Assembly (NCBI GenBank): GCA_028716965.1
Contig: JAQUOV010000003.1
Coordinates: forward strand, 140,756-204,755
Direction: 5' to 3'
From: Candidatus Omnitrophota bacterium
Lineage (GTDB): Bacteria > Omnitrophota > Gorgyraeia > Gygaellales > Profunditerraquicolaceae
DNA: 64,000 nucleotides
Shown one piece after another: positions 42,520-63,930 of the stretch (within the stretch, counting starts at the first letter, position 1; each line of letters begins with the position of its first letter). Under the pieces are notes generated by a model. It was not told the DNA's origin and searched no databases. It was given only the letters and a program-made list of their open reading frames with translations. Made by a program: the position numbers and the translations under genes.

Positions 42520-42554
42520 TTATTTCTCTCCTATACGCATAACCCTAAGAACTT

Positions 42555-44682: not shown

Positions 44683-44691
44683 TTAACCTCC

Positions 44692-46074: not shown

Positions 46075-46076
46075 AA

Positions 46077-47540: not shown

Positions 47541-47541
47541 C

Positions 47542-47886
47542 TTACCACCTCGCCGGCTCCGCGCTAAAAGGCAAAACCTCTTCTTCGCGGCTGGTTGCGC
47601 GGCCACTTTCTATCTTGGTATCCATAATACTTTTCTTGTAATCAGTGCTATCCTCCAAATCAGTAACATAAGAATTACTTTGTATACTGACTGTGGTATC
47701 AATCGTAGTAGTAGAATCCTGCATTGCCCCGGGAGAATAAAAATAACCTCCTCCTACCTCATCAGCTGAACTCCGCATCCTGCCTGCAAGGCCACGTTTA
47801 AGATAGACCTGCATAGCGAAAAGCGCGGCCACGATTAAACTGACCATAACCACATATTCTATCGTAGATTGGGCAATATTCTTCAT
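47542..47886 (-). CDS. Flp-family pilin paralog (start ATG 47886)
   Basis: MKNIAQSTIEYVVMVSLIVAALFAMQVYLKRGLAGRMRSSADEVGG. Confidence 0.65.
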   Translation of the reverse strand: MKNIAQSTIEYVVMVSLIVAALFAMQVYLKRGLAGRMRSSADEVGGGYFYSPGAMQDSTTTIDTTVSIQSNSYVTDLEDSTDYKKSIMDTKIESGRATSREEEVLPFSAEPARW

Positions 47887-47896
47887 TTTCGCCCCT

Positions 47897-48061
47897 TTAT
47901 CTCTTGGATTCATTTAATTCCACCTGAATCTGTTTTAAGCGCGCGTTTATGGAGCGTTGTATATACTGGCGCATCGCCAATAAGGCCGTGACAATAACCA
48001 TAATCAGCATAGTATATTCCAGAAAATTCTGTGCGCGCCTGTTGTAAAAGGTATTTAACAT
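47897..48061 (-). CDS. Small Flp-family pilin, 54 aa (below the ORF-track length cutoff)
   Basis: Hand translation: MLNTFYNRRAQNFLEYTMLIMVIVTALLAMRQYIQRSINARLKQIQVELNESKR; GGGGAG/AAGGGA Shine-Dalgarno. Confidence 0.6.
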   Translation of the reverse strand: MLNTFYNRRAQNFLEYTMLIMVIVTALLAMRQYIQRSINARLKQIQVELNESKR

Positions 48062-48078
48062 TCCCTTACTCCCCTTCT

Positions 48079-48228
48079 TTATTTTAGATACGCCACACCC
48101 TTGTTGAAGTAATTATAAAAGGCGTCGCGTACGGTATCTATAAAGCCAGTAGATACTGCCAATGCCATCAGCAATGCAAGGACCACGAAATATTCAATTA
48201 CACTTTGCCCCTTAATCTTTCTTTTCAT
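48079..48228 (-). CDS. Small Flp pilin, 49 aa, canonical G/QSVIEY motif (below the ORF-track cutoff)
   Basis: Hand translation: MKRKIKGQSVIEYFVVLALLMALAVSTGFIDTVRDAFYNYFNKGVAYLK; starts 2 nt after the TadC stop. Confidence 0.65.
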   Translation of the reverse strand: MKRKIKGQSVIEYFVVLALLMALAVSTGFIDTVRDAFYNYFNKGVAYLK

Positions 48229-48230
48229 CT

Positions 48231-49139
48231 TTAAAACCCAAAGTTAATCCCGCCGCGGGCAAACTGCAGGATGATCGGGCCTCCCACAATAATCATTACT
48301 ACCGGCAAAATAAAGGCAAACAAAGGAAAGAGCAGTTTAATCGGCGCTTTTAATGCCATTGATTCGCCGTGCTGGAACCTCCTTACCCTCATCTCCTCTG
48401 CCTGTACATTTAAAGCCTCGGACATAGGCGTACCCATGCGGTCAGCCTGTATAAGCGTACGCACAAAAGAATGCACTTCAGGGATATCCACGCGCCAACC
48501 GAAATTCTTTAAGGCCTCCCGCCTGCTTTTGCCGACCTGCGTCTCGCGGTAAACCTCCCCTAATTCCCTGGTCAGGTCGCATGGTTTCAAATCTTTAACC
48601 ACGCGGTTTACCGCCAACATGAAATCCATACCACCGCTGACACAAAGGGTCAATAGGTCAATGATATTGGGCAGGTCACGCCGTATATTGTGCACTCTTT
48701 TGGATATCTTTTGATTAAGCCACATCTCCGGGATAAAGAAACCTATGGCCAAAGAAATAATCAAAATCATATTCGTCGGCATGTTGCTGCTAAAGAAGGT
48801 AAACGCAATAACCGGAACAAAGATTATCGCCAACACCTTAAATGCCAAGAACTCCAGCACCCCCATCGGCAACCCGGCTTTAATCAGCCTCCTCCTTATC
48901 GCCTCTATTGAAAAAGGGATACGCCTTTCAAAATCCTTAAACCTGGCGGTAAGAGGCAGCCAAGCATTCTCCGGCTTTACCGTGTATTTGTCCTGGCTTA
49001 ACTCCATCTCTACCTTATCATTATCAAATATCTGAGCAGGCAGGCGCATCTTTTCCAGGCCGAATATCTTAGAACCGAACTGCAACAGCACAAGATAGAT
49101 GCTGGCAGTTAAAAGTAAAACCACTAAAGCTAATGTCAT
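48231..49139 (-). CDS. TadC-like inner-membrane platform protein (T2SS-F domain)
   Basis: T2SSF-like LPNIIDLLTLCVSGGMDFMLAV ... TPMSEAL plus TM helices. Confidence 0.75.
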   Translation of the reverse strand: MTLALVVLLLTASIYLVLLQFGSKIFGLEKMRLPAQIFDNDKVEMELSQDKYTVKPENAWLPLTARFKDFERRIPFSIEAIRRRLIKAGLPMGVLEFLAFKVLAIIFVPVIAFTFFSSNMPTNMILIISLAIGFFIPEMWLNQKISKRVHNIRRDLPNIIDLLTLCVSGGMDFMLAVNRVVKDLKPCDLTRELGEVYRETQVGKSRREALKNFGWRVDIPEVHSFVRTLIQADRMGTPMSEALNVQAEEMRVRRFQHGESMALKAPIKLLFPLFAFILPVVMIIVGGPIILQFARGGINFGF

Positions 49140-49151
49140 CCAGATTCTCCT

Positions 49152-50003
49152 TTATATATCCACCCTGCTTAATTTACGTATAAAAATAATACCAAGTATT
49201 TCAGAAACAATCGCGTAACCCATAAGGCCTCTTCCGAAGTTATCTTTAATGAACACGTCAAAAAAACCTGGATTCACCTTATACACAAATATCCCGAATA
49301 AGATAGGCAATATCGACATAATTATCCCCTGCATGTTTGCCTGCACGCAGAGGGCCTGGACCCTTCCAATAAGCTTATTCCTCTCCTGGATAGTATAGAT
49401 TACCCTGGAAAATGTCTGGGTAAGGTCTCCTCCGGTCTCCCTGGCTACCAGCATCGCGGTTACAACCATATCCAGTTCATCCAGGCGCATACGCTTCTTA
49501 AGCTTAGTCATCGCCTCCTCAAGAGAAACACCCATCTGCATCTGGCGTATGACAAGGCCAAACTCCTGGCTGATGGGGTTAGGCATCTCCTGCGCCAACT
49601 CCTCAAATGACTGCAAGAGGCTTAACCCCGCCTTAAGAGAGCTGGATAGAATCATTAACCCGTCAACAAGCTGCGAGGCGAATTTTTGCCTGCGTAAAGC
49701 TTCAAGCCGCTTGACGACAAAAATAGGAATAGCCAACCCCGCTGCTGCCGCCGCCGCGGCAACCCATATATTATAGGTAATGAAAAAACCCAATAACCCA
49801 CTTATTATAGGTGAAAGCACATCGATCAGCAGCAGCTTGTTTAACGTGATATCCAGAAACATGCTGTTTAACTTCGGGGTTATTTTATCCAACCTTTTCC
49901 TTTGCCAGCGATCCATTAAGGTTTCAAGAAAAGGATAAGACAGATTAATAAGATAAAAAACCCCAAAGAAGACCACTGCGAACAACAGTATCTTTGTCAG
50001 CAT
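49152..50003 (-). CDS. TadB-like inner-membrane platform protein (T2SS-F domain); alternative GTG start at 50009
   Basis: ILSSSLKAGLSLLQSFEELAQ ... VARETGGDLTQTFSRV; GGAG Shine-Dalgarno before ATG 50003. Confidence 0.75.
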   Translation of the reverse strand: MLTKILLFAVVFFGVFYLINLSYPFLETLMDRWQRKRLDKITPKLNSMFLDITLNKLLLIDVLSPIISGLLGFFITYNIWVAAAAAAAGLAIPIFVVKRLEALRRQKFASQLVDGLMILSSSLKAGLSLLQSFEELAQEMPNPISQEFGLVIRQMQMGVSLEEAMTKLKKRMRLDELDMVVTAMLVARETGGDLTQTFSRVIYTIQERNKLIGRVQALCVQANMQGIIMSILPILFGIFVYKVNPGFFDVFIKDNFGRGLMGYAIVSEILGIIFIRKLSRVDI

Positions 50004-50033
50004 TTGCACAACTCCATATTTGTACTTATCGCA

Positions 50034-50360
50034 TTACTTCCACCAGAACTCCTGGTCAGAAGTAGCAACTGATTCGCTTGTAGTTTTATCACTCGTTTGG
50101 CCATCAGTCGGGATCGTAGATACAGTTTGCTTATCTTTAAGTACCTCGCTAGATTCGGTACTGCTGGTAGTTGTATAATGCCCCGTGGTGTAACCCGGTG
50201 AAAACTGTTGGCCCATACTATCGGCACTTTCTCTTAATTTACCCTGGTATCCTCTCTTAAGATAAACCTGCATTGCGATAAGTCCGGCGACGATCACCCC
50301 GATCAAAATAGCATACTCCAATGTTGTCTGCGCCTTATTCCGCTTAAATTTGTTAAACAT
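50034..50360 (-). CDS. Flp-family pilin paralog with S/T-rich C-terminal extension (start ATG 50360)
   Basis: MFNKFKRNKAQTTLEYAILIGVIVAGLIAMQVYLKRGYQGKLRESADSMG; AAGGAGGTGA Shine-Dalgarno. Confidence 0.7.
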   Translation of the reverse strand: MFNKFKRNKAQTTLEYAILIGVIVAGLIAMQVYLKRGYQGKLRESADSMGQQFSPGYTTGHYTTTSSTESSEVLKDKQTVSTIPTDGQTSDKTTSESVATSDQEFWWK

Positions 50361-50388
50361 AAAACTCACCTCCTTAATCATTATATTT

Positions 50389-50727
50389 TTATTCTTCCTT
50401 AGGTACCAATATCGTCTGAGAACCACCTCTCCTGCTAGCATCGGTAGAACTCCTGGTGACCGCACCTCCAGTTAGCAAATCTTCATCTTCACTTGAGTTG
50501 CGCTTGCTGCTAAAATCTGATTCTAAATAATAGGGCTCATATTGCTTAGTTGTAAAGGTCACCGAATCTCCTGATGCGCCTCCGTAGTCAACATAATTCA
50601 CCGCGTCCTTGATCCTGCCCTGGAAACCCCTCTTAACATAAGTCTGCATACCTATTACTGCAGCAACTATTAACCCCAGCACGATAACATACTCTGCCGT
50701 GCTCTGCGCTCTTATATTCCTTAACAT
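50389..50727 (-). CDS. Flp-family pilin paralog (start ATG 50727)
   Basis: MLRNIRAQSTAEYVIVLGLIVAAVIGMQTYVKRGFQGRIKD; GGAGGTGA Shine-Dalgarno. Confidence 0.7.
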   Translation of the reverse strand: MLRNIRAQSTAEYVIVLGLIVAAVIGMQTYVKRGFQGRIKDAVNYVDYGGASGDSVTFTTKQYEPYYLESDFSSKRNSSEDEDLLTGGAVTRSSTDASRRGGSQTILVPKEE

Positions 50728-50753
50728 TTTCAATCACCTCCTTAAGAATTGCC

Positions 50754-50927
50754 TTATTCGAAATTAACATGGTTGACCGCGGTCTCCGCCTGCGTCGCCA
50801 CATGATCAAGCATATTATTCATTTTCGGCTTGATAATCGAGTTTGCGGCCAAGATTACTGCCCCTATAATCGCCGTGAAGATAATAATGTATTCAAGAGT
50901 ACTCTGCGCCTTTTTCTGCTTTAACAT
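50754..50927 (-). CDS. Flp-family pilin, 57 aa (start ATG 50927); candidate major pilin
   Basis: MLKQKKAQSTLEYIIIFTAIIGAVILAANS...; GGGGGTGA Shine-Dalgarno. Confidence 0.7.
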   Translation of the reverse strand: MLKQKKAQSTLEYIIIFTAIIGAVILAANSIIKPKMNNMLDHVATQAETAVNHVNFE

Positions 50928-50961
50928 TTTTCTCACCCCCTCTCTAAGATTTTCTGAAACT

Positions 50962-51021
50962 TTACCAGTATAAAAAATAAAAAAACCGAAGTTTCAATCT
51001 CCGTTACAAGAATCTTCGGTT
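50962..51021 (-). terminator. Rho-independent terminator (minus strand) downstream of the transposase gene
   Basis: Stem AACCGAAG (50984-50991) / CTTCGGTT (51014-51021) with a 22-nt loop, then on the minus strand a U-tract of 7 T, A, 6 T. Confidence 0.6.
50967..50997 (-). promoter_or_regulatory. Possible promoter for the pilin genes, overlapping the terminator (TTGAAA, 19 nt, TATACT)
   Basis: -35 at 50997..50992 and -10 at 50972..50967 on the minus strand; spacer longer than optimal. Confidence 0.25.
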
Positions 51022-51230
51022 CTCGCTAAGCCGGCTAATATTCTGGCCTGACCTAATATAAGATAATCAAAGAAAACAAATTTTGGCGTATATAGTCCCG
51101 TGGCCTTGCGCATCCACTTTCCTCCGATAGCGGAATTGCTTTTTTCTTATTACTTTTAAAATGCACCTAAAATATAACACCTATTAGTAAGCATGTCAAT
51201 AATACTTAACCTCCTTTAAGAAAGCGTTTT

Positions 51231-52844
51231 CTAAAGCAGGCACCAAAGGCGGCTGCTGTCCGCGAAGATGATTTCCCTCTCGTTTATCCTATGACAGGCA
51301 TATTCCAGTTCTTTTAGGAAAGGATACCCCGCAGGAGGGTAGAATTTCACTATGGAGCAGCCATCCCCTCTCTTTAGAATTGTATTAAGGCTATAAAAAT
51401 GTTGTTTTGCCTCCGGAAAACACTTGTCTTTAAAGACCTCGGGCAGAAAATACCAACGCACATACAAATCCAGGATCTGCAGATAATTCTCAAAAATTGC
51501 CTTTGTTTGAGGGGGGTTTTGAAGCTGCTCTGCACATTCCGCTGATAAAAAACGTTGGGAGTTGCCTGTATAAGTAAAGAACTCTATCTTCCTGCTGTAA
51601 TCCTTGAATGTTTCCCCTAAATTCGGCCAACGGCTAAGATATATATTTGCCAGCTTTTCAGGCTGGCTACTATCAAAAACAAGGTTACTTAAAATAACCA
51701 TCCTGGTTTTTTCTGAAAGTGTGTTTCTTATTGCGCAGCCCTTTAATGTAACTGACTGTCCTGCATCTGGTTGAGATATTTCAATCTCTATTTCAGAGAG
51801 GAAAAATTTTAGCCCCACCGGCTCGAAAACGAATGGTTTGAATTCTCCTATATTTAAGATCTTACGATAATCTACAAATTGCCAGGGCCACATTGCAAAG
51901 ACAAAAAAACGCTTTTTGCCGGAATTTAACTGGATTGAGTTTAACTCTTCAAGCTTGTTCCCATAAATCTTTAAACCGGCAACATCTCTACCTTTTAACT
52001 CCAGCCCTAAGATAAAATTAAAAAATTCCTTAGTAGGGACATTGTGCCCTGGGGCGGTAAATAAAACTAAAGGGGCATTATCTTTGAAGTGCCTATTTAT
52101 GTAACGACTTGTATTGCATATAGTTGTAGAAAAAGAATATGGCGTATGGGGGGTGGACCAAACAGTATACATATTGCCATCTACATATGAACTTTCATTG
52201 TTTGAAAAATCAATTCTCATACAACGGGCCTCTTTAAACACATTCCTGGTTGCCTGGGATATAACCTTATCTAATGACGTAACTGATTGTAAATCATTAT
52301 GATACGACATTATATCTTCAAAAGAGAGATTCTTGCCAATTAGCGCCTGTAAACCACTGATCTGGTTTTCTTGAGATTTCTCAAATAAAGGGAGATAAAT
52401 TAAGCCTTCTGTCTTTGCCATAATATCGTCTATGCCAATCTTCAGGCTATTCTTAACCGATTCTATGATACTTAGGCTGCCACCGATTAAGCTATCTGCA
52501 GCTTTCAGAAGGATTGCTCCTGTACACTGTATTTCCGGCTGTGGCTGAGCCTGAAGGCTGACTTTTGGCAGTTCTTCAGCCAGCTTTTCGGGCTCAGGCA
52601 CTAATCTCAAAACCTCCTGTATGGACTCTTTTATCGAATCCTTTTTCCTAAGCCTGGACCTTCCTACAGGCATGCTCAAGCCAGCCTCCTTAAACACTGA
52701 ATTAATGCTGGATTTGGATACCTCTATCTGAAATTTCTGTAAAATTAGATGAGATAGGCTCCTACAGCTTAGCGCGGGATTGGCTCTTTTCTGATCAAGG
52801 ATAAATTGCCTTGTTTCTGGCTTTAGTTTATGAATTACACCCAT
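51231..52844 (-). CDS. Putative DDE transposase (IS4/IS1634-like) with N-terminal HTH; start at ATG 52844 (track used TTG 52874)
   Basis: N-terminal HTH-like KPETRQFILDQKRANPALSCRSLSHLIL; C-terminal YLSRWPNLGETFKDYSRKIE resembles the IS4-family YxxRxxxExxxxxxK region. Confidence 0.5.
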   Translation of the reverse strand: MGVIHKLKPETRQFILDQKRANPALSCRSLSHLILQKFQIEVSKSSINSVFKEAGLSMPVGRSRLRKKDSIKESIQEVLRLVPEPEKLAEELPKVSLQAQPQPEIQCTGAILLKAADSLIGGSLSIIESVKNSLKIGIDDIMAKTEGLIYLPLFEKSQENQISGLQALIGKNLSFEDIMSYHNDLQSVTSLDKVISQATRNVFKEARCMRIDFSNNESSYVDGNMYTVWSTPHTPYSFSTTICNTSRYINRHFKDNAPLVLFTAPGHNVPTKEFFNFILGLELKGRDVAGLKIYGNKLEELNSIQLNSGKKRFFVFAMWPWQFVDYRKILNIGEFKPFVFEPVGLKFFLSEIEIEISQPDAGQSVTLKGCAIRNTLSEKTRMVILSNLVFDSSQPEKLANIYLSRWPNLGETFKDYSRKIEFFTYTGNSQRFLSAECAEQLQNPPQTKAIFENYLQILDLYVRWYFLPEVFKDKCFPEAKQHFYSLNTILKRGDGCSIVKFYPPAGYPFLKELEYACHRINEREIIFADSSRLWCLL

Positions 52845-52932
52845 ATTTTCTCCAGATTGGACATTATTAGCCAATATTAATGTACAATAAAATAGTCAAT
52901 ATGTCAACAATAATTCAGTTTGGACATTATTA

Positions 52933-52990
52933 GGGACGCTTTTGCACCTAAAGCAGGGACGTTTCTTAGCCTAATCGGAAAACTGTCCCC
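52933..52990 (-). repeat. REP-like element copy B (inverted relative to A and C)
   Basis: Reverse complement GGGGACAGTTTTCCGATTAGGCTAAGAAACGTCCCTGCTTTAGGTGCAAAAGCGTCCC matches copies A and C. Confidence 0.8.
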
Positions 52991-53057
52991 CCCCCTCCAG
53001 GAATATTTTGTTAGATTTTATTATATTGCAGCGTCTATTATAGCGGAGGTGATAAAT

Positions 53058-53540
53058 ATGCCAAGAAGTGCAAGATTAATTCTAGATAACGCATGCTATC
53101 ATTTGATGGCACGAGGGAATCAAAGACAATATACTTTTATTGAAGATGAAGATTTCAATAAATACCTTGAGCTATTAAAACATTATAAAAACAAGTATTA
53201 TTTTAAACTGTATGGTTATTGCTTAATGCCAAACCATGTGCATTTAATAGTAGAGCTTAATAAATCATCTATACTGGGAAAGATTATGCAAGGACTGAAC
53301 TTAGCATATACAATCTGGTTCAACAAAAAATATAATAAAGTGGGCCATCTCTGGCAGGGAAGATATAAGAGTAAGCTGATTCAAAAGAATAAATACTTGT
53401 TAGATTGCATAGAATATGTGGAGTTTAATCCAATAAGATCAAATATGTGGAAATCTCCTTTTGACCATCCTTGGAGCAGCTGGAAAGAACGCATGGGATA
53501 TAAAGAAAACAGCCTCGTAGATACTCCTAACTTAAGCTAA
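53058..53540 (+). CDS. REP-associated tyrosine transposase (RAYT, IS200-like Y1 HuH transposase)
   Basis: HuH motif LMPNHVHLIVE; catalytic Tyr region WQGRYKSKLI; GGAGGTGA Shine-Dalgarno 6 nt before ATG 53058 (track start 52920 is an over-extension); flanked by inverted REP copies B and C. Confidence 0.85.
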   Translation: MPRSARLILDNACYHLMARGNQRQYTFIEDEDFNKYLELLKHYKNKYYFKLYGYCLMPNHVHLIVELNKSSILGKIMQGLNLAYTIWFNKKYNKVGHLWQGRYKSKLIQKNKYLLDCIEYVEFNPIRSNMWKSPFDHPWSSWKERMGYKENSLVDTPNLS

Positions 53541-53598
53541 GGGGACACTTCTCCGATTGGGTAGGGAAGCGTCCCTGCTTTGGGTTCAGAAACGTCCC
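53541..53598 (+). repeat. REP-like element copy C
   Basis: GGGGACACTTCTCCGATTGGGTAGGGAAGCGTCCCTGCTTTGGGTTCAGAAACGTCCC, immediately after the RAYT stop codon. Confidence 0.8.
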
Positions 53599-53942
53599 TA
53601 ATCTATTAAGGTGATGTGGTCGCCTGTTTGGGTAGAGGTTCTTTCCAGGGTTCCTGCGGGAAGTTCAATACTAAATAGCGCGTTTAAATAAATACCGCTT
53701 ATCCTAAACGGCCGCATACTGCGGATCTCCCTTGTAATTCTGTTATTGGAATCAACAAAGATTACGTCTATGGCAAATTGCATAAAGAAAGTGTGGATTG
53801 AATTACAGGGTTTGATTATTAAAGCTTGTCCTTGTTTAAGCTCCCTGCGGTTTAACAAGCCAACCATCCTTCTTAACGGAGTTTTGGCAATAGCCGCATC
53901 CTCTGCTAAGCTTGTACCGCGGTCTTTGTTGATTATTTTCAT
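53598..53942 (-). CDS. DUF192-family protein
   Basis: HTFFMQFAIDVIFVD matches the DUF192 core; the ATG overlaps the TGA of the upstream ATPase gene (ATGA). Confidence 0.65.
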   Translation of the reverse strand: MKIINKDRGTSLAEDAAIAKTPLRRMVGLLNRRELKQGQALIIKPCNSIHTFFMQFAIDVIFVDSNNRITREIRSMRPFRISGIYLNALFSIELPAGTLERTSTQTGDHITLID

Positions 53943-56101
53943 AAAGAAGGGTTAAAAATATCGTCGGAGATCGAGATGCCCTGCACCCTGAGCTGTTCCA
54001 CAAAAGAGGGGATGTAACCTGTAGGTTTGAATTCACCAAGGACTTTGCCGTCCTTGTCCACTCCTGTCTGTTTGAATATAAAAATATCCTTTAAACCAAC
54101 ATGCACCTCATCAATCATGCCGATCATCTCTGAAACCTGCGTTACCTTTCTTGAACCATCGGATAACCTGGCAGTATGGATAATAATATTGATTGCCGAG
54201 GCGATCATCTCCCTGATTGCACGCACAGGAAGTTCTGCCCCCGACATAAGGATCATAGAATCCATCCTGGAGATAACGTCCCGGGTTGAATTCGCATGTA
54301 TCGTAGTCATAGATCCGTCGTGGCCTGTATTCATTGCCTGAAGCATATCCAGAGTCTCCGCCCCACGGCACTCGCCGATTATAATCCTATCGGGGCGCAT
54401 ACGCAGAGAATTGCGGAAAAGGTCCCTGGAGGTAATCGCGCCTTTCCCTTCAACGTTAGGAGGCCGTGATTCAAGGCGCACCCAATGTTCCTGTTTTAAT
54501 TTCAATTCCGCAGCATCTTCAATAGTGATAATACGCTCAGTAGGCGGGATAAATACTGACAGCACATTCAATACGGTTGTTTTACCCGAGCCCGTCCCAC
54601 CGGAAACAATTGTATTCTTTCTGGATAAGATACATGCCTGCATAAAATCAGCCATGGGTTTGGTTAAAGTATTTAAACGTAATAAGTCGTCCGTAACCAG
54701 CCGCTCGCGTCCAAATTTTCTTATAGTCAGCGTAGGGCCGGTTAAAGAAAGCGGAGGGATGATCGCGTTAACGCGTGAGCCGTCGGAAAGCCGGGCGTCC
54801 ACCATGGGGGCGCTTTCATCAATGCGCCTGCCTAAAGGAGCGATTATACGTTCAATAACCTGGCGTACCTGTTCATTGGAAAGGAACCTCTTGGGGGATA
54901 ACTCTATTCTGCCGTGGCGCTCAATGTATATCTGGTTTTTATTATTGACCATGATATCGGAAATATCCGAATCATTGACTAAATCCTCCAGTGGCCCAAG
55001 CCCCAATGCCTCATCAATTATCTCTTTGACCAGCCTTTTCCTTACATCGGAAGGAGAAAGGAACACCCCGGTTTCTTCCGCCAGGGCATTGGTAATTACC
55101 TTCTCGGTTTTTTCTTTTACGGCCTGAGCCTTGGCCGGGTCACTCATATCAATCTCTAAATGCTTAAGGTCAAGTTTTTCAATCAACCTTTGATGTATGC
55201 GCTTCTTTAATTCAATGATCTCATCCGGCTCCCTATCTTCACCTTCCGGGGTAAAAGCCTCATGGCCTAATTTAAATTTCTTCCAGAAATCCCCCTCTTT
55301 TGCAAAAAAACCCTCGCCTGCTGCAGAAGGCAAGGCAATCTCCTGTCGCTTAAGAAATAAACTCTCATCCTCGCTAAGCAGTGTGGCTAATTTCTTAATA
55401 CTTTGGCTGGCTCTACAATTAAGGTTGTCTATGACAAGTGGTATCCGCCTGTTTAATGCTAAACCCGCAGCCTTGCCTTCTGAAGATATACGGCTGATTA
55501 TCTCGCATGGCACAGCAGCACGCACCTCCTGCCAGATAACCCCGCCTAAGCTCTGGGCGCGGTTTAAAATGATCTTAATCATGCCCAAGGGGATATAGAG
55601 CGACTGCAAAATATCCAAAGACCACTTTGTTTGATAGACGGATAATATATCCGGTGTTACTACCAAAAGTACAAGGTTGGCGTGGTTGAAGACGGAAAAC
55701 AGGCTTTCGGTAAAAGCGCGTCCGGCGTCTATGATTATATAGTCATACTCCTTTTCCAACGCATCCAGAACAAGCTTGATCTTTTCGCTGTCTACACGAA
55801 ATATCTGGTTGGGTTTTAATACTGCGGGAAGGAAATCAATACTGTATTTCTCAATATAAATCAGGTCTCCTTTTACGGAGGCCTTTGTGGGGTCCTTTTT
55901 CAATGCCTCTGCCAAATCAAGCAGCGATTTGTCAGCCGTAATATCAAGCCAGCGGGGCATGTCTCCTGCGCCCTGTAAATCTAAATCAATAAGCGCTACT
56001 TTTTTACGCAGGTAATAACCCAGGCTGACAGCCAAATTCGTCGCAAGCAAGGTTTTGCCTACCCCGCCCTTTGTGCTGAATATGACTATTGTTTTTGACA
56101 T
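53939..56101 (-). CDS. Fusion protein: N-terminal TadZ/CpaE-like ParA/MinD ATPase domain plus C-terminal TadA/CpaF secretion ATPase
   Basis: N-term IVIFSTKGGVGKT (deviant Walker A). C-term VSGGTGSGKTT, RMRPDRIIIGECRG, AMNTGHDGSMTTIHANS (VirB11/CpaF family). Confidence 0.85.
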   Translation of the reverse strand: MSKTIVIFSTKGGVGKTLLATNLAVSLGYYLRKKVALIDLDLQGAGDMPRWLDITADKSLLDLAEALKKDPTKASVKGDLIYIEKYSIDFLPAVLKPNQIFRVDSEKIKLVLDALEKEYDYIIIDAGRAFTESLFSVFNHANLVLLVVTPDILSVYQTKWSLDILQSLYIPLGMIKIILNRAQSLGGVIWQEVRAAVPCEIISRISSEGKAAGLALNRRIPLVIDNLNCRASQSIKKLATLLSEDESLFLKRQEIALPSAAGEGFFAKEGDFWKKFKLGHEAFTPEGEDREPDEIIELKKRIHQRLIEKLDLKHLEIDMSDPAKAQAVKEKTEKVITNALAEETGVFLSPSDVRKRLVKEIIDEALGLGPLEDLVNDSDISDIMVNNKNQIYIERHGRIELSPKRFLSNEQVRQVIERIIAPLGRRIDESAPMVDARLSDGSRVNAIIPPLSLTGPTLTIRKFGRERLVTDDLLRLNTLTKPMADFMQACILSRKNTIVSGGTGSGKTTVLNVLSVFIPPTERIITIEDAAELKLKQEHWVRLESRPPNVEGKGAITSRDLFRNSLRMRPDRIIIGECRGAETLDMLQAMNTGHDGSMTTIHANSTRDVISRMDSMILMSGAELPVRAIREMIASAINIIIHTARLSDGSRKVTQVSEMIGMIDEVHVGLKDIFIFKQTGVDKDGKVLGEFKPTGYIPSFVEQLRVQGISISDDIFNPSL

Positions 56102-56110
56102 GGCAAACGA

Positions 56111-57718
56111 TTAATTATTTCTAAAGTCTATCGGTACATCAACCCAAAGTTCCTGAGATTCTATCTGGGGAGGGAAAGGAGGATAAGGCGCCTGTTTTTT
56201 GGCTATATCATAAGCAGCGTCATCTAAAACCTTATAGCCCGAAGATTGCACTAATTTGATGCCTTTTAAAGCCCCGCTTGCGGTAATATTAAGGTTCAGC
56301 CGTACATTACCTTCCCAACCCGCGTTCTTGGCTTGTTGGGGATAATAAGCTGATTTAACTATCTTTGATTTAACTATCCGTACATAATTTCCGAGACTTC
56401 CCGGTAACTCCGGCTCGTTAAAAGATTCTTGTTTTTTCTCCGCGACAGAATCGGAAGAAGGTTTCTTCCCTTTAGGCTCATCCCGAGCGACTATAGTAGG
56501 TACGAGTGTAACGAATAATTCCGTATCATCTCTTGCCCCTTGCCCTTTCCCTATTTTAGTTACTCTTTGCCTGAAGAATAAGCCTAAAACCGGGATATCC
56601 GCAAGCCAAGGGAATTTACGCAGGTCTTCTTCTGTCTTTTGCTTAATCAAGCCGCCTATTGCCATGATCTGGCCGTTATTAAGGTAAAGTTCGCTGGAGA
56701 CGGAACGCTTGCTCAAAGGATATGCCTTAGCAGTAGGCGCGTCTTCTGATCCCAGGATCTCAGCTTCCCCTACGTCACTGACCTCTACATACAAATTTAA
56801 TTTTATTCGGTCATCTTCGGTTACAGAAGGCTTTATCTTTAACTTAATGCCGTATTCTTTATATTCCACGTTTGTGGAGGAGCTGCCTCCTGTTGACACG
56901 GCTGTAGTGAAAACAGGTTTTTCACCTCCCACAAGCAATTGTGCTTCTTTATTAGTTTGACAAGATAGCCGAGGACGAGAGAGAATACGCGCCTTGCCTT
57001 CCTGTATTAAAGCATCCAGCTTTAAAGTAAATGCGGCGCGGGTTATATTGGCAACATGAAATAACTTTCCCCAGGTTGTCCCTGCCGCTTGAATACCTGA
57101 AGAACCCACTTCAGTTAAGGTCATTGAACCCGGCCATGAAAACCCAAGGGTCTTGGTAGCATCTTTATTAAGCTCCAGTATCTGCACATCAATTTCTATT
57201 ACTGTTTCCTCTTCTTTGACCTCGACAAGATCAGATATCTTATCTTTAAGGTCGTTTAAGGCCAAGGCGATCCTTTCTTTATCCTTGGAAGTCTTTACCC
57301 TGCCCAAAATAATGACTTTTCCTTCGTCCTCTTCTGCCTTGGTATAAACCTCCGGCAAATCCAATTGGCCTAATAAATTATCCACCCGCTGCTTGATCAA
57401 GGTCATATCTTCCCTTATTACTTTTATATTTTCGGACTGCTCGCCAAAAGTATCCCAGTATACCAATGAAGTCTGTCCTGGTGATTTTGCGGAAAGAGCG
57501 ATCTCTGTTTCAGTGACATTAGAAATATCCGCTACCAGGGGATTACCGATAATGACCCTGGTGGGCATTTGCGTAGGGATTATTTTGGTCTCCCCCACAA
57601 GTAATTTTAATGTTTCCTGCGGGGCGTCGCCGGCTAATATGGGACCCACCAATACCAGCATCAAGACCGGAATCAAGCTTACCATGATAAAAGCGTTTAT
57701 TTTCTTACACATATTCAT
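56111..57718 (-). CDS. Secretin (CpaC/RcpA-like) with C-terminal TonB_C domain
   Basis: Secretin core LLVGGEKPV ... FPWLADIPVLGLFFRQR ... ELFVTLVPTIV. C-terminus YYPQQAKNAGWEGNVRLNLNITASGALKGIKLVQSSGYKVLDDAAYDIAKKQAPYPPFP matches the TonB C-terminal consensus. Confidence 0.85.
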   Translation of the reverse strand: MNMCKKINAFIMVSLIPVLMLVLVGPILAGDAPQETLKLLVGETKIIPTQMPTRVIIGNPLVADISNVTETEIALSAKSPGQTSLVYWDTFGEQSENIKVIREDMTLIKQRVDNLLGQLDLPEVYTKAEEDEGKVIILGRVKTSKDKERIALALNDLKDKISDLVEVKEEETVIEIDVQILELNKDATKTLGFSWPGSMTLTEVGSSGIQAAGTTWGKLFHVANITRAAFTLKLDALIQEGKARILSRPRLSCQTNKEAQLLVGGEKPVFTTAVSTGGSSSTNVEYKEYGIKLKIKPSVTEDDRIKLNLYVEVSDVGEAEILGSEDAPTAKAYPLSKRSVSSELYLNNGQIMAIGGLIKQKTEEDLRKFPWLADIPVLGLFFRQRVTKIGKGQGARDDTELFVTLVPTIVARDEPKGKKPSSDSVAEKKQESFNEPELPGSLGNYVRIVKSKIVKSAYYPQQAKNAGWEGNVRLNLNITASGALKGIKLVQSSGYKVLDDAAYDIAKKQAPYPPFPPQIESQELWVDVPIDFRNN

Positions 57719-57726
57719 CCTTAATT

Positions 57727-58599
57727 TTATTCCAGAACCTTGATTTCCTTGTTTAAGCCACGGTAAATCTCAACGGTTTTCTTGGGTTTAGGAGGCACAA
57801 CTACAGGTTTTTCCTGCTGCTGAAAAGCCTGCGGCATCACGGTTCTGAACAAAGTATCCCAGCTTGCCGGAGTTACCTGTTGCAACTGCGTATCCCCGGG
57901 AGAACGCAGGATCAGCCGGATTTTACCCTGCTCTTGCACAAAAACAATAAGGTTCGCCTCCTGAGGCGATAAAGCAAAGGTTATGGCCGGAGCTATTGCT
58001 GCCGCTTTTTCTTCTTTTTTCCCACCCTGCATAAACTCCTGGCCGACAGCTAAAACTAAGACATCCTGGAATAAAGGCATAGTAGCCAATTGATTTACTT
58101 GTTTTCCTTCAGCATTCATTGCCGGAATAGGCACCATACCTACGATATCAACATGATCCCCAGGCCTGATCATACCTCCGACTGAAGAGATGTTATCTAC
58201 GGGAACAGTTACCGCTCTTTTGCCTGCAGGTACCTTCATGGATAAAGACCCTATCTCGCCGGAGATTGTAACCTTGTTCAAAAGCACCTGTTCACCTTTG
58301 TCTATAGGAGCAATGGTAATCTTATCCACAACCCTGTCTATGGATGCCGCCGAGCGGGGCTGAACCATATTCCTATTAACCGTTATCTCTGCAAGCATGG
58401 ATTCTTTTATTGCGGTGCCGGCCGGTATACTCTGCTTAGCCACTACTACGGTAGTGAGATTCTTCTGGCTTTGCGCTACCATCCTTTTTGCTTCTTCGGT
58501 CTGATGCTGGATATAATTATTGATCAGCACTACCGCAATTAAACCGCAAACTCCGCTAATCAGCAACGGCAGGTATTTCTTAAAGGCTTGAATTTGCAT
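57727..58599 (-). CDS. CpaB/RcpC-like Flp pilus assembly protein (SAF domain)
   Basis: N-terminal TM; VVVAKQSIPAGTAI; RAVTVPVD...GGMIRPGDHVDIV. Confidence 0.75.
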   Translation of the reverse strand: MQIQAFKKYLPLLISGVCGLIAVVLINNYIQHQTEEAKRMVAQSQKNLTTVVVAKQSIPAGTAIKESMLAEITVNRNMVQPRSAASIDRVVDKITIAPIDKGEQVLLNKVTISGEIGSLSMKVPAGKRAVTVPVDNISSVGGMIRPGDHVDIVGMVPIPAMNAEGKQVNQLATMPLFQDVLVLAVGQEFMQGGKKEEKAAAIAPAITFALSPQEANLIVFVQEQGKIRLILRSPGDTQLQQVTPASWDTLFRTVMPQAFQQQEKPVVVPPKPKKTVEIYRGLNKEIKVLE

Positions 58600-58602: not shown

Positions 58603-59529
58603 CTATCGTACCTTTTCTTCGTAAATTTCTATTTTCGTCTCGCCGGATAGTTTATTGGCAAGCTCGACTATTGCCTTCTGCTGCTTTTCAAATAACAACC
58701 ATGATTTTATGTTATCCCGTAACTCAGCCAGGGATTTAGGCTCAGATTTCTTTATACTATCAAGTTTTATTATGTAAAATCCGTCCGGCCCCTTGAATAT
58801 ACTGCTAACTCCGCCAACCTCCAGCGAGGGAGAAAAAGCTACTTCATAAAATTTTTCAGGCCTTATCCGTTTTTCGGGACTTACCTCGTAAGTCATCAAG
58901 CCTACATCGCCGCCGCGGGATGCGGTATTAGCTTTCGAATATTGCCTGGCTAAAGAAGAAAAATCCATGCCTTTAAGCAATTCAATATAAACCTGCTTGG
59001 CCTCCTCTTCGGTAGGAGTCATAATCTCCAGAATCTTCCTCTGCTCAGGATCTCTAAGCATGTCTTTATTTTGTTCATAAAAATCTTCTATCTCTTTACT
59101 GCTTACATCAATTTTCTCAATTTCCCTGCGTAATAATTCCGCGATCAAAAGGTTCATCTTGGCAGCCTCAAGCTCTTTTGCGATCTCGGGCTTTTTATCC
59201 AAACCTCTATCCAAGGCTTCCTGATATAGGATATATTTACGCACAAGCTCATCTCTCAAATATTTCACTTTCTTTTCGCTGGTATCAATCTTGTTCTTGT
59301 CCATCTTTTGCGCGGAGGCCAAAGAATTAAAATTATCAACTTCCTTGTTCAAGTCTGAAGCCGTGATATAAAAATCCCCTACCTTGGCAACTATAGTCTC
59401 GCCTACAGGAGGGAGATTTTGCTTGATTTGCTTCACAGGTTTAGCTGTGTCCATAAAAGGTATCTTGTCGCAACCCGAGAATAAAAATACGGTAAACAGG
59501 ATTACTAATAAATTTTCTAGCTTGCGCAT
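58603..59529 (-). CDS. Lipoprotein, parvulin-type peptidyl-prolyl isomerase (SurA/PrsA-like)
   Basis: Lipobox LFSGC; PPIC-type motifs RGGDVGLM ... GPDGFYIIKL; AGGAGG Shine-Dalgarno. Confidence 0.65.
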   Translation of the reverse strand: MRKLENLLVILFTVFLFSGCDKIPFMDTAKPVKQIKQNLPPVGETIVAKVGDFYITASDLNKEVDNFNSLASAQKMDKNKIDTSEKKVKYLRDELVRKYILYQEALDRGLDKKPEIAKELEAAKMNLLIAELLRREIEKIDVSSKEIEDFYEQNKDMLRDPEQRKILEIMTPTEEEAKQVYIELLKGMDFSSLARQYSKANTASRGGDVGLMTYEVSPEKRIRPEKFYEVAFSPSLEVGGVSSIFKGPDGFYIIKLDSIKKSEPKSLAELRDNIKSWLLFEKQQKAIVELANKLSGETKIEIYEEKVR

Positions 59530-60286: not shown

Positions 60287-60315
60287 TTGACCACCCCATA
60301 TTTACATTATATACT
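60287..60315 (+). promoter_or_regulatory. Sigma70-like promoter TTGACC, 17 nt, TATACT for the FIST operon; predicted near-leaderless start
   Basis: -35 at 60287-60292 and -10 at 60310-60315; ATG at 60323, so about 7 nt from the -10 to the start codon. Confidence 0.4.
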
Positions 60316-60322
60316 GTCTGCC

Positions 60323-61510
60323 ATGAATGTAAGTTTTGGTTTTAGCCAGACCAAAGACCATATCCGGGCAACCAATGAAGCGGTCGGGCAGGCGATAATC
60401 GGCCTTAGGGGTATGCACGCGGACCTGGCAATTATCTTCACTACAATAGAATTTACACATCCTCTTGTATTAAAAACCGTCAACAACCTGCTTGGCGAAA
60501 TTCCCATATTAGGCTGCAGCAGCCTGGGAATTATAACTAACAAAGGGATATTTAAGCATGGGTTTGCCATACTGCTTATCGGATTAAGCCAGCAGATGTT
60601 CTTTAATGTCGCCTCGGTCAGGGATATCAATAAGAAAACCGCTCTCCTGGCCGGAAGAGAACTGGGAGAGAAACTGCTTTATGGATATAAAACTGTGCGC
60701 AGGAATTTAAGCATAATCTTTTCGGATGGTCTGATCTCCGAAGGAACCAGCCTGATCAACGGACTACAGGAAAATTTGGGCAGGAGCTTTCCTCTTATCG
60801 GAGCACTTGCCTCGGATAACTTTACCTTCCAGAAAACATTTCAATATTTCAATAAAGAACTGCTTAGCGAATCCTGCTGCGGGGTACTTTTCGGCGGCGG
60901 GATAAATTTCAGCCTGGGCATCAAACATGGTTGGAAACCCTTGGGGAAAGTACGCTGCGTTAATAAATCGGAGGGAAATGTAGTTAAAGAGATCGACGGC
61001 CGGCCGGCGGTAAAACTTTATGAAGATTACCTGGCTAAAGATACGCTTGAATTATCCGAAGAGCTGCGGCGCATATCCATCTTTTACCCTCTGGGGATTT
61101 ACTTGCCGGGAGAAAAAGAATACTTGCTGCGCAACATCATCTCCATAAAAGATGACGGTTCGCTGGTCACCCAAGGGGACATACCGCAGGATAGCAAAAT
61201 CAGATTAATGATCGGCACCAAAGATTCCTGCCTTGAAGCCGCAGCTGAATCCTGCGAAGACGCAGAAAGAAACCTTATGGGCCAAAAAGCAAAATTTGTG
61301 ATGGTCTTTGATTCCGCGTCAAGGTTTTCGCTTTTAGGCAGGCAATGCGTAAAAGAACTTGAGATAATAAAGGAAACGTTCGGCGAAGAAACCCCCTTAG
61401 TAGGCATTTATACTTATGGGGAACTTGCCCCCCTTCAATCCATAAGTTATCTAGGGCACAGCCATTTCCATAACCAGAGCATAGGCGTTCTGGCTGTAGG
61501 AGGTCAATAA
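60323..61510 (+). CDS. FIST domain sensor protein (start ATG 60323; track TTG 60287)
   Basis: FIST_C-like VGIYTYGELAP...SHFHNQSIGVLAV, and a FIST_N-like N-terminal half. Confidence 0.7.
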   Translation: MNVSFGFSQTKDHIRATNEAVGQAIIGLRGMHADLAIIFTTIEFTHPLVLKTVNNLLGEIPILGCSSLGIITNKGIFKHGFAILLIGLSQQMFFNVASVRDINKKTALLAGRELGEKLLYGYKTVRRNLSIIFSDGLISEGTSLINGLQENLGRSFPLIGALASDNFTFQKTFQYFNKELLSESCCGVLFGGGINFSLGIKHGWKPLGKVRCVNKSEGNVVKEIDGRPAVKLYEDYLAKDTLELSEELRRISIFYPLGIYLPGEKEYLLRNIISIKDDGSLVTQGDIPQDSKIRLMIGTKDSCLEAAAESCEDAERNLMGQKAKFVMVFDSASRFSLLGRQCVKELEIIKETFGEETPLVGIYTYGELAPLQSISYLGHSHFHNQSIGVLAVGGQ

Positions 61511-61511
61511 A

Positions 61512-62990
61512 ATGTTAAACCTGATGTTCATTGCCATTTGTATGGTTATTGCCAGCATGGGTATATCGCTGCTGTTTAAGATGCAACGCTTAAAGGAACT
61601 GGAAAAACGCGCGGATGCCTTAAACGCCTCGCTTGAAGAGATGGACGAACAAGCCAAATTGATTATTCGAACGGACATAGAATTAAATAAAACCCAGGAG
61701 GAGCTGGACAAAAAGATCACTGGACTTTCCACCTTGCAGCAATTATCCCGGGAGATAAGCACTACTCTGGAAGAAAAACAGATCTTCAAGAAGATAGGCA
61801 AGTTCTATCTGGAAGAGCTTGGTTTTGAGAAATCATCTGCTTTATTATGGGATAACCTGACAAGGGAATTCCACTTATACCTAAGCATTGGCTATAGCGA
61901 AAGCGAGTCGCTAAGAATAAAAGATGCGGTTAATACAGACAAGGATTACTACCTGGATTTGATGCACGGGGGCAAAACCGCATCCTCTGTTTTTATCCCC
62001 GAAGGCTTCCTGGACAAGGATAAAATTTGCCAGTTATTCCAGGCGAATGAATTTATTATCTGCCCGATCACCCCCAAGGAAGGCAATCAAGGGTTTATCT
62101 TTGTGGGCACGCAAAATATAGAAACCCGCATAACTGAAGGCGAACGTGAAATCATCACCATACTAGCCAATCAAATCGGCCAAAGCTTGGATAATGCCAG
62201 GCTATTTGAAAAAACCTGGAGGTCACAGCAGGAGCTTGAGATAAAAGTTGAAGAAAGGACGCGCCAGCTTACTGAAACCATGGAGGAATTAAAAAAGATC
62301 AGCAAGCGTAAAAGCGATTTCATCTCCAGTGTTTCCCATGAGTTAAGAACCCCCCTTACCTCTATTAAGGGATATGCGGCGATATTGCTGGCAGGCAAAT
62401 TAGGGGCTATCCCTGATGAGATCAAAGAACGCCTTGCCAAGATTAACCGCCACAGCGATGAATTAGTGCATATGGTAAATGACCTCCTTGATATTTCACG
62501 CATTGAATCCGGAAAAGTAAACATGCACGTAGAAACCCTGGAACTTGCCCCGATAGTTGAAAAAGTAGCCGATCTGCTTTCCGAACAGTTCAAAGCAAAG
62601 AATATCACCTTTAATATGCTTATTCCTGAGGATTGCAAGAAAATAATGGTTGACCGCAGCCAGATAGAAAGGGTTTTTATTAACCTGATAGGCAATGCCT
62701 TAAAGTTTACCCCTGAAAATGGCTCTATCAGCGTGGGCGTGCATTGCTCAAATAAAACAATTCAAGTCGATGTCAAAGATACCGGCTTTGGTATCCCCCA
62801 AGAGGCCCAGGAAAAGATATTTGAAGAATTTTACCGCGTGGACAACACTATCAACCAGGGGGTAAAAGGTACCGGCCTTGGGCTTACGCTGGTTAAGCAC
62901 ATCATTGAGGCACACCGGGGGAATATATGGGTAACCAGCAAACTGGGAGAAGGTGCAACTTTTAGCTTTACCCTCAACTGCACCGAATAA
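61512..62990 (+). CDS. Sensor histidine kinase (TM, coiled coil, GAF, HisKA, HATPase_c)
   Basis: H-box SVSHELRTPLTSIKGYAAIL; N/G boxes NLIGNALKFTP, DTGFGIP, GTGLGLTLVK; AGGAGG Shine-Dalgarno. Confidence 0.85.
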   Translation: MLNLMFIAICMVIASMGISLLFKMQRLKELEKRADALNASLEEMDEQAKLIIRTDIELNKTQEELDKKITGLSTLQQLSREISTTLEEKQIFKKIGKFYLEELGFEKSSALLWDNLTREFHLYLSIGYSESESLRIKDAVNTDKDYYLDLMHGGKTASSVFIPEGFLDKDKICQLFQANEFIICPITPKEGNQGFIFVGTQNIETRITEGEREIITILANQIGQSLDNARLFEKTWRSQQELEIKVEERTRQLTETMEELKKISKRKSDFISSVSHELRTPLTSIKGYAAILLAGKLGAIPDEIKERLAKINRHSDELVHMVNDLLDISRIESGKVNMHVETLELAPIVEKVADLLSEQFKAKNITFNMLIPEDCKKIMVDRSQIERVFINLIGNALKFTPENGSISVGVHCSNKTIQVDVKDTGFGIPQEAQEKIFEEFYRVDNTINQGVKGTGLGLTLVKHIIEAHRGNIWVTSKLGEGATFSFTLNCTE

Positions 62991-62994
62991 AACT

Positions 62995-63930
62995 ATGGGA
63001 ATCAAGATACTTATTGCTGATGACGACCCGGATATACGAGACATACTTAAGCTTACCCTTTCCGAAGAGAATTATGAAACCATTGAAGCCGGTAACGGCG
63101 AAGAGGCACTCAAGATAATCCGTGCCAAGCCCCTTGACCTGGTCCTTCTGGATTACAAGATGCCTAAGATGGACGGACGGCAATTGTGCAATTTAATCAA
63201 AAAAGACTTGTTGCTGCAGCACCTTCCGATAATCATGGTAACGGGGAAAGGCGAGGTAAGTGATAAAATCGATGGGATCGACTCCGGAGCGGATGATTAT
63301 ATCGTTAAGCCGTTTGAGCCTAAGGAGCTTTTGGCCAGGATACGCATGGTCTTAAGGCGCACAAAAAGAGACCTGGAGGCAAACCCGCTTACCCGCCTTC
63401 CGGGAAACGTAGCTATCCTTAATGAACTTTCCGACCGTATAGAAAATAAGAAAACTTACGCGGTTTGTTATGTAGACCTGGATAAATTCAAGGCTTATAA
63501 TGATAAATACGGATTTGAGCACGGAGACACCGTTATCCGGGAAACTGCGCGCATACTGCTTGGGGCTGCAAAAGAATACGGTAGCCTTCTTGATTTTGTC
63601 GGGCATATCGGGGGAGATGACTTTGTGGTAGTAACTACGCCTGAGATGTCGGATAAGATCTGCGAGAAGATAATCCACGATTTTGATAAAATATCCCCCT
63701 CCTTCTACAACCAAGAAGACAGACAAAACGGTTATATTATCGGCAGGGACCGTCAGGGAGAGATCCAGAAAATCCCCCTCCTTTCAGTCTCCATAGGCGT
63801 GGTGTCCAATGAAACGCGCAATATCACGCATGTAGCCCAAATCGGCGAGATCGGAGCAGAGTTAAAAAAGATCGCCAAGAGTGTTGAGAAAAGTAATTAC
63901 GTTAAAGACAAACGGCAAAACAAAGTTTAA
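62995..63930 (+). CDS. Response regulator with REC domain plus GGDEF-like domain (motif GGDDF)
   Basis: REC: ILIADDDPDIRD, LDLVLLDYKMPKMDG, VTGKG. GGDEF-like: YAVCYVDLDKFKAYNDKYGFEHGD ... HIGGDDFVVV. Confidence 0.8.
   Translation: MGIKILIADDDPDIRDILKLTLSEENYETIEAGNGEEALKIIRAKPLDLVLLDYKMPKMDGRQLCNLIKKDLLLQHLPIIMVTGKGEVSDKIDGIDSGADDYIVKPFEPKELLARIRMVLRRTKRDLEANPLTRLPGNVAILNELSDRIENKKTYAVCYVDLDKFKAYNDKYGFEHGDTVIRETARILLGAAKEYGSLLDFVGHIGGDDFVVVTTPEMSDKICEKIIHDFDKISPSFYNQEDRQNGYIIGRDRQGEIQKIPLLSVSIGVVSNETRNITHVAQIGEIGAELKKIAKSVEKSNYVKDKRQNKV

Follow-up and report, generated by a model that had tools for sequence, protein, structure and literature searches.

A Tad-type secretin of Omnitrophota that ends in a TonB C-terminal domain, a possible built-in docking module

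Introduction

What is the C-terminal domain of a TonB protein doing at the end of an outer-membrane secretin? The question is raised by one open reading frame (ORF), 56111 to 57718 on the minus strand, in a 64,000-nucleotide stretch of DNA from a Candidatus Omnitrophota bacterium (assembly GCA_028716965.1, contig JAQUOV010000003.1, positions 140,756 to 204,755 of the forward strand), the whole of which we call the window. A first-pass annotation, made from the letters alone, had read this ORF as a secretin with a TonB C-terminal (TonB_C) domain and had remarked that such an appendage is unlike the usual secretin add-ons, a remark borne out by the canonical Tad systems, whose secretins use a TadD-binding tail or a CpaD belt. 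In Pseudomonas aeruginosa the last four residues of the unstructured RcpA tail recruit the tetratricopeptide repeat (TPR) pilotin TadD, a step essential for secretin assembly (PMC10499894), and in Caulobacter the OmpA-like lipoprotein CpaD forms a belt that is thought to anchor CpaC to the wall (PMC13170226). Secretins are normally positioned and assembled by separate pilotins or wall-binding partners, and a folded docking domain covalently attached after the core would be an unusual solution. The fusion marks an envelope machine of the Omnitrophota, bacteria that are ultra-small and probably predatory or parasitic, and this machine is encoded beside the largest genes known.

A secretin of the CpaC/RcpA type that continues into TonB_C

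The ORF encodes a genuine secretin that continues, behind a flexible linker, into a C-terminal TonB_C domain, and its translation at exactly 56111..57718 (minus strand) holds every string quoted in the first-pass annotation. The protein divides into the following parts (aa, amino acids; pLDDT, the per-residue confidence score of AlphaFold2).

56111 to 57718, minus strand: CpaC/RcpA-type secretin with C-terminal TonB_C, 535 aa, ATG start, stop codon at 56111-56113 (ORF list, Pfam, NCBIfam)
57629 to 57718, minus strand: signal peptide, aa 1-30, with a basic n-region, a hydrophobic helix and a putative cleavage site, ...ILA/GD, placed by eye (sequence; AlphaFold helix 4-28)
57419 to 57619, minus strand: N-terminal pilus-formation beta-domain T2SS-T3SS_pil_N, aa 34-100 (Pfam E 7e-13; pLDDT above 90)
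57164 to 57406, minus strand: probable N1-like alpha/beta ring-building domain, aa 105-185, assigned from the predicted topology (AlphaFold H105-119, E124-141, H144-160, E161-184; pLDDT about 85)
56489 to 57013, minus strand: secretin core PF00263, aa 236-410, ending ...TELFVTLVPTIV (Pfam E 3.7e-38)
56402 to 56488, minus strand: disordered linker, aa 411-439, rich in E, K, A, P and S (pLDDT below 50)
56114 to 56401, minus strand: TonB/TolA-type C-terminal globular domain, aa 440-535 (Pfam TonB_C, TIGR01352, PDB sequence match, Foldseek, invariant columns)

The secretin part is recognized by two Pfam families, PF00263 (131.2 bits against a cut-off of 27.5) and PF13629 (48.5 bits against 23), and by sequence and fold searches of the PDB, in which the best matches were secretins and the solved chains nearest to the core were 8jvb and RcpA (8odn); the full-length secretin models of NCBIfam all scored far under their cut-offs. 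With both families, a signal peptide and a Tad gene context, the protein belongs to the CpaC/RcpA (Tad) branch of secretins, and it is the outer-membrane channel of the Omnitrophota Tad-like machine (a type IVc pilus or 'T2SS-like' system, after the type II secretion system) encoded upstream of a giant gene. It shares with RcpA and CpaC the N-terminal pilus beta-domain and the secretin core, as well as neighbours of the CpaB/RcpC, CpaE/TadZ, CpaF/TadA, TadB/C, Flp-type pilin and TadG-like kinds, but differs from them in its tail, a linker and a folded TonB_C domain, and in the lack of a TadD- or CpaD-like gene in its cluster. It is accordingly no secretin of the RcpA-TadD subtype; a short pilotin-binding tail is a mark of that subtype alone and not of secretins at large. 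In canonical Tad systems it is the secretin N-domain of RcpA that contacts RcpC (PMC12307814).

That the last 80 or so residues form a TonB_C domain, as first proposed, is upheld by two of the checks named beforehand, a Pfam search and a structure prediction, and the agreement is far beyond chance. Pfam TonB_C (PF03544) matches aa 457-533 with an E-value of 1.7e-18 and 67.3 bits against a gathering cut-off of 24.6, and the NCBIfam model TIGR01352 (tonB_Cterm) scores 63.9 bits against 27.1, whereas TonB_2 (PF13103; 21.8 bits, cut-off 22) and the TolA model TIGR02794 (23.2 against 59.45) stay below threshold. A full-length AlphaFold2 model built from 70 homologues gave pLDDT values of 86-93 for the N-domains and for aa 440-535 and below 50 for aa 417-432; the Lys/Ser-rich linker of the first-pass annotation is indeed a stretch of this kind, and its sequence is unconserved across homologues. 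When the domain was modelled alone (aa 411-535), 82 residues reached a pLDDT of at least 90, the first 26 being disordered, and the predicted topology was helix-helix-strand-strand-helix-strand.

Foldseek comparison of this domain-only model with the PDB returned TonB, HasB, FusB or TolA-III C-terminal domains for all of the top 26 matches, with TolA structures ranking under those of TonB. The top match was Helicobacter pylori TonB (6sly; E 2e-6, TM-score 0.73), which a PDB sequence search also gave as the closest solved chain, and the best matches included TonB bound to TbpA, FoxA, BtuB and FhuA; Neisseria TonB from a receptor complex (9dc4_T) aligned with a TM-score of 0.79 and a root-mean-square deviation of 1.7 Å. 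The canonical motifs of the family are all present, namely YP (aa 459-460), G-x-EG-x-V and SSG...LDD. Homologue alignments add residues that are invariant in this family specifically, Y445 and Y512-P513-(P514)-F515-P516; the latter lie in a PYPPFPP motif (aa 511-517) placed just ahead of the last strand, ELWVDVPIDF, which is conserved as well. TonB and TolA C-terminal domains grip their targets by beta-strand addition (PMC12204202), and in the structures of TonB-receptor complexes the TonB boxes pair with the edge formed by the terminal strand of TonB_C.

Conservation and distribution of the fusion

The survey for secretins with a C-terminal TonB_C domain, likewise suggested by the first-pass annotation, found the fusion throughout the family. 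All of the 120 best homologues (51-100% identity) carry PF03544, PF13629 and PF00263 together, except for one fragment. A HMMER scan over 1.84 billion cluster representatives (clustered at 50% identity) returned 272 clusters at E<=1e-30, and a local hidden Markov model detected a TonB_C-like domain in 143 of the best 149 representatives. The six exceptions comprise five short or fragmentary sequences (244-417 aa) and P0239, which lies on a 2.6-kb contig and was probably cut within a long linker, so that it is not accepted as a true homologue without TonB_C. One of the five, P0130 (L082, 1664-2917), was likewise rejected as a genuine short secretin, since it ends in ...VSYTHLTLPTKRIV 36 bp from the end of its contig, an assembly artefact of the adapter or chimera type. 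A species-level genome collection encodes relatives at 294 loci; the best 80, which we analysed, are all from Omnitrophota metagenome-assembled genomes (MAGs), a few of them mislabelled 'uncultured Planctomycetales', align through residue ~533 and bear TonB_C on the same ORF in 79 cases.

Every TonB_C-bearing member with a named source comes from Omnitrophica/Omnitrophota, including those found in searches started from two divergent clade members; an archaeon label on one divergent member is certainly a binning error, since this is an outer-membrane protein. The search with a divergent member drops sharply from TonB_C-bearing proteins (E<=1e-60) to CpaC of Burkholderia and other Proteobacteria without the domain. 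Judged by these searches, the fusion appears to characterise the branch of CpaC-type secretins found in Omnitrophota. An artefact, in which adjacent secretin and TonB genes were joined by a lost stop codon or a chimeric contig, can be dismissed, because secretin and TonB_C share one and the same ORF in hundreds of independent assemblies (NCBI, JGI, ENA, Logan), at 28-100% identity.

The tail is also under selection as a folded domain. Mean pairwise identity in TonB_C is 51% among close and 35% among distant homologues, on a par with the secretin's own folded domains (56-66% and 28-38%), but falls to 15% and 9% in the linker, which indicates purifying selection on the domain and not on the segment that carries it. 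The spacer between core and TonB_C is always of low complexity and rich in E, A, K and S; it measures 27-48 aa in close homologues and 13-354 aa, with a median of 38, across the family, and proline makes up about 10% of the short linkers and 6.5% of the long. In ten representatives TonB_C is present twice, in tandem. This variation in linker length and copy number fits a flexible binding module and does not fit a fixed structural ring.

A natural variant without the domain is found in an Omnitrophota MAG (P0405; L081, 5513-6775), where a 420-aa secretin ends in a 24-residue tail in place of linker and TonB_C. Its locus keeps the PPIase-CpaB-secretin-CpaE/F-DUF192 order (PPIase, peptidyl-prolyl isomerase), the gene following the secretin begins 70 bp after it, and no separate TonB_C gene was found near the secretin in L081. 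This variant shows that the TonB_C module is accessory and not essential, and as a natural 'deletion' it would be useful for comparative work.

An architecture obscured by its name

The fusion is visible in databases but mis-named, and it is undiscussed as far as the searchable literature shows. NCBI holds an identical (100%) protein of 533 aa as 'MAG: TonB family protein [Candidatus Omnitrophica bacterium]', and homologues including P0001, P0005 and P0032 are 'TonB family protein' at NCBI and CpaC at JGI; the NCBI name arises because the TonB C-terminal model is the only one to pass its threshold. This label hides the secretin and can be mistaken for a capacity for nutrient import. Searchable literature on secretins with TonB or TonB_C, on the Tad systems of Omnitrophota and on V. 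archaeovorus contained no description of a secretin-TonB_C fusion. West-Roberts 2023 (10.1101/2023.11.21.568195) reports gspD/E/F, rcpC, a Rotamase_2 PPIase noted as conserved and class III signal peptides, with no mention of TonB or of a secretin add-on; Seymour et al. discuss Tad and RcpA in Omnitrophota and do not mention the fusion; a 2026 preprint (10.64898/2026.06.07.730766) notes 'TonB-domain content' beside two giants with the secretin unrecognised; and a 2025 study of TonB/TolA evolution (PMC12204202) makes no mention of secretins.

A possible docking module and its alternatives

The reading we favour, to which we assign a probability of about 0.45, is that TonB_C serves as a multivalent module for docking or anchoring, built into the secretin and lying in the periplasm, that holds on to a strand of a partner. 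The first-pass annotation had offered a TonB-box partner or a tether to peptidoglycan as the function, and these two are the leading hypotheses. The disordered linker and TonB_C would take the place of the short pilotin-recruiting tail of RcpA. With a secretin ring of about 13-14 subunits whose C-termini leave the barrel at its periplasmic face, about 13-14 TonB_C heads would hang from each channel under the outer membrane, or about 26-28 where two domains stand in tandem. The edge strand that the TonB fold leaves exposed would then capture a short, TonB-box-like beta-strand of an envelope partner protein, and this capture would fix, localise or stabilise the channel, so that the module could substitute for a separate pilotin (TadD) or belt (CpaD). 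This reading is the simplest one in view of the binding of TonB/TolA heads by strand addition, the 13-14-fold symmetry of secretins, the position of the domain where a pilotin tail is expected, and a Pfam scan of the cluster ORFs that found no TPR or OmpA-like gene of the TadD/CpaD type. A link in trans between TonB and a pilus machine has a precedent in the PocAB-TonB3 of P. aeruginosa, without which type IV pili are not made (PMC5285504). The periplasmic location, the multivalency, the beta-augmentation mode and the nature of the ligand are all features we infer from these comparisons, the ligand being most likely a beta-strand of a partner protein and less likely peptidoglycan.

Several observations weigh against this docking role. 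The locus without TonB_C shows that the machine can dispense with the module. None of the 80 loci contains a second TonB_C gene within 10 kb of the secretin, and no ligand is obviously encoded nearby; alignments of up to 60 orthologues of each conserved neighbour (PPIase, CpaB, DUF192, the 94-aa protein, o298, o90 and the 547-aa protein) yielded no convincing TonB box. Multivalent tethers of variable copy number, moreover, equally mark out peptidoglycan anchors, the AMIN domains of PilQ among them, and these two properties therefore cannot separate a protein ligand from the cell wall. Naming the ligand would show how the machine is anchored or loaded, and could clarify the dependence of some pilus systems on TonB paralogues.

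The likeness to peptidoglycan anchors leads to the main alternative, a peptidoglycan tether, in which the 13-14 heads bind the cell wall and fix the channel, the role that AMIN plays for PilQ or that has been proposed for the CpaD belt. We regard it as a serious contender, if an unlikely one. The multivalency, the very variable and flexible linker and the tandem copies are typical of wall anchors and fit this reading as well as they fit docking on a protein; a linker of about 38 aa, the median, could probably reach a wall lying a few nanometres below the outer membrane. PilQ-type secretins of type IVa pili carry tethered AMIN domains that provide a multivalent anchor, and they resemble the Omnitrophota secretin in having flexibly tethered accessory domains whose copy number varies by lineage, but AMIN is N-terminal and of another, peptidoglycan-binding fold, whereas the Omnitrophota add-on is C-terminal and of the TonB type. 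The C-terminal domain of Escherichia coli TonB has reportedly been found to bind peptidoglycan. Pfam detected no AMIN-, LysM- or SPOR-type gene or domain in the cluster, which, with CpaD and OmpA-type genes missing too, leaves the anchoring role unfilled, and a peptidoglycan-binding lipoprotein does surround the Tad secretin of Caulobacter (PMC13170226). However, TonB_C is not an established peptidoglycan-binding fold, the functions documented for it here are protein-protein strand additions (PMC12204202; PDB complexes), and neither the C-terminal part nor the rest of the window secretin matches a peptidoglycan-binding family in Pfam at E<=0.01.

A bolder extension of the docking role, which we consider speculative and rather unlikely, treats the fusion as a 'Rosetta stone' for a direct association of TonB-type heads with components of secretin machines, the secretin-borne heads capturing the TonB-box-like strand of one specific partner. 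That partner may be the giant surface protein encoded alongside, a tip or minor-pilin complex, or a barrel of the outer membrane. If this were true, docking would couple the partner's export, anchoring or positioning to the Tad-like channel, and the same logic could explain why type IV pili elsewhere need stand-alone TonB paralogues (PocAB-TonB3). PocAB-TonB3 and the TonB-like GspB/ExeB resemble the present case in being TonB-like proteins functionally tied to secretin machines, but they are separate, inner-membrane, motor-associated proteins acting in trans, whereas in Omnitrophota the head alone is covalently fused to the secretin. TonB_C has been reused as a docking head also in Myxococcus xanthus GltG/GltJ and in the Bacteroides fusions with Peptidase_M56, CarboxypepD_reg or tandem TonB_C; these are anchored in the inner membrane, and none is fused to an outer-membrane channel.

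It is improbable, in our estimate, that the domain instead acts on the secretin itself, binding a strand of the neighbouring subunit or another TonB_C and so stapling the ring together without need of a pilotin. TonB C-terminal domains can dimerise, the cluster holds no pilotin-like gene, and the domain is conserved on a par with the secretin domains. It sits exactly where S-domains and pilotin-binding tails do (PMC10499894). A staple, however, predicts a constrained linker and not one that is unconserved and varies over the range given above; the tandem domains of some lineages fit it poorly, the full-length AlphaFold model shows no confident packing between domains (predicted TM-score 0.40), a secretin without TonB_C exists in the same type of locus, and the conserved lipoprotein PPIase encoded upstream could itself be the assembly factor.

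Still less probable is a receptor for substrate or cargo, in which the heads would capture a strand of the giant protein, of a minor pilin or tip complex, or of another secreted factor. Giant genes are directly preceded by this conserved cluster (10.1101/2023.11.21.568195; 10.64898/2026.06.07.730766), as in the window, where the giant ORF follows it, and the giant protein begins with a transmembrane or signal-anchor helix and so is partly periplasmic or exported. The idea is purely contextual, though; a single cargo would not need 13-28 receptors per channel, and no conserved TonB-box-like strand was found in the neighbours or in the N-terminus of the giant protein.

Very improbable, finally, is a TonB-like energy coupling that would tie the secretin to an ExbBD-, TolQR- or PocAB-like motor to gate or power the channel. 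In its favour, PocAB-TonB3 is required for the type IV pili of P. aeruginosa, and a contact of TonB3 with the N0 domain of PilQ has been proposed (PMC5285504). A TonB or TolA transducer, however, consists of an N-terminal transmembrane helix with an SHLS motif for the ExbBD/TolQR motor, a periplasm-spanning domain II and a globular head (PMC12204202), and the window secretin begins with a cleavable-type signal peptide followed by secretin domains in place of a transmembrane anchor, with no SHLS motif and no His in aa 1-35 (any His occurs in the first 35 aa of only 6 of the 70 homologues). Its linker is not a proline-rich domain II spacer, and the head is tethered at the outer-membrane end. No ExbB/ExbD-type gene or TonB-dependent transporter was found among the window ORFs scanned, and there is no tol-pal context around the secretin that would make it a TolA. 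Energy transduction by TonB_C is ruled out by the lack of an inner-membrane anchor, of SHLS and of an ExbBD partner. The likeness to TonB and TolA domains (6sly, 9dc4_T, E. coli TonB 2gsk_B, TolA-III 3qdp) extends to the fold, to YP, G-x-EG-x-V and SSG...LD and to the terminal strand; the difference lies in the transducer parts and TolQR-type neighbours that are missing, in the outer-membrane-side tether and in the invariant PYPPFP. The tail thus clearly belongs to the TonB_C fold family without being a functional member of the TonB family.

The Tad-like cluster and the giant gene

The secretin gene lies in a tight cluster on one strand, with intergenic gaps of 3, 8, 9 and -4 bp, in which a 94-aa membrane protein, PPIase, CpaB/RcpC, the secretin, CpaE-CpaF, DUF192, a 547-aa protein, pilins, TadB/TadC, minor pilins with a TadG-like gene, and genes of no recognized type succeed one another. 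This gene order is common to the 80 related loci, which were taken with flanks of 10 kb, short of the giant genes of the other loci. The features are as follows.

58603 to 59529, minus strand: lipoprotein PPIase of the SurA/PrsA-like parvulin kind (signal ...FSGC), directly upstream of CpaB (Pfam Rotamase_2 E 5e-17; 71 of 80 loci)
57727 to 58599, minus strand: CpaB/RcpC alignment-complex protein, 8 bp upstream of the secretin (Pfam RcpC E 4e-26, SAF; 76 of 80 loci)
53939 to 56101, minus strand: CpaE(TadZ)-CpaF(TadA) fusion ATPase, 720 aa, 9 bp downstream of the secretin (Pfam T2SSE E 1e-60 plus ParA/AAA_31; 74 of 80 loci)
41446 to 53942, minus strand: rest of the cluster, with DUF192, the 547-aa helix-turn-helix (HTH) protein, Flp-type pilins with class III signal peptides, TadB, TadC, minor pilins, a TadG-like gene and unknown genes (Pfam; synteny)
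2 to 40798, minus strand: giant gene encoding at least 13,600 aa, which directly follows the cluster and runs off the window (stop-free frame from 40801)

The giant protein has an N-terminal transmembrane helix, a Peptidase_C39-like domain at aa 182-266 and TPR stretches at about aa 5,400-7,700. West-Roberts 2023 (10.1101/2023.11.21.568195) described how, in Omnitrophota, the secretion locus and a giant gene are conserved as a pair, and such a cluster has been reported directly upstream of 13 of 14 giants (10.64898/2026.06.07.730766).

The PPIase keeps its GC lipobox among related loci, and this lipoprotein may be a dedicated chaperone of the secretin or the pilins, or a pilotin-like factor for them. 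Its segment GETIVAKV (consensus vkGtvvAkVNN), which follows the lipobox, was considered as a TonB box and rejected, since such a first strand is usual in SurA/PrsA-type N-domains. An uncharacterised core component is the 547-aa protein (51231-52874, minus strand), which matches no family apart from a weak N-terminal HTH hit, follows DUF192 directly in 56 of the 80 loci and has conserved motifs, WPWQF among them. Small Flp-like or pseudopilin genes, at least six in number and with N-termini of the class III type, lie at 50034-50936 and 47100-48061 (minus strand), and some of these ORFs overlap (50034-50465 with 50389-50733), so that their true starts are probably internal. Within the cluster and on the opposite strand stands a Y1/IS200-like transposase gene (52920-53540, plus strand); a recent insertion that split the cluster was rejected, as at least 19 of the 80 loci have a homologue (51-79% identity) at this position, which suggests a conserved and possibly domesticated (RAYT-like) gene. 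Divergent from the cluster, at 60287-63930 on the plus strand, are genes for a FIST-domain protein, a HisKA histidine kinase and a response-regulator-GGDEF protein, and L081 has similar kinase/GGDEF and receiver genes upstream of its cluster, which hints at control of the machine by cyclic di-GMP.

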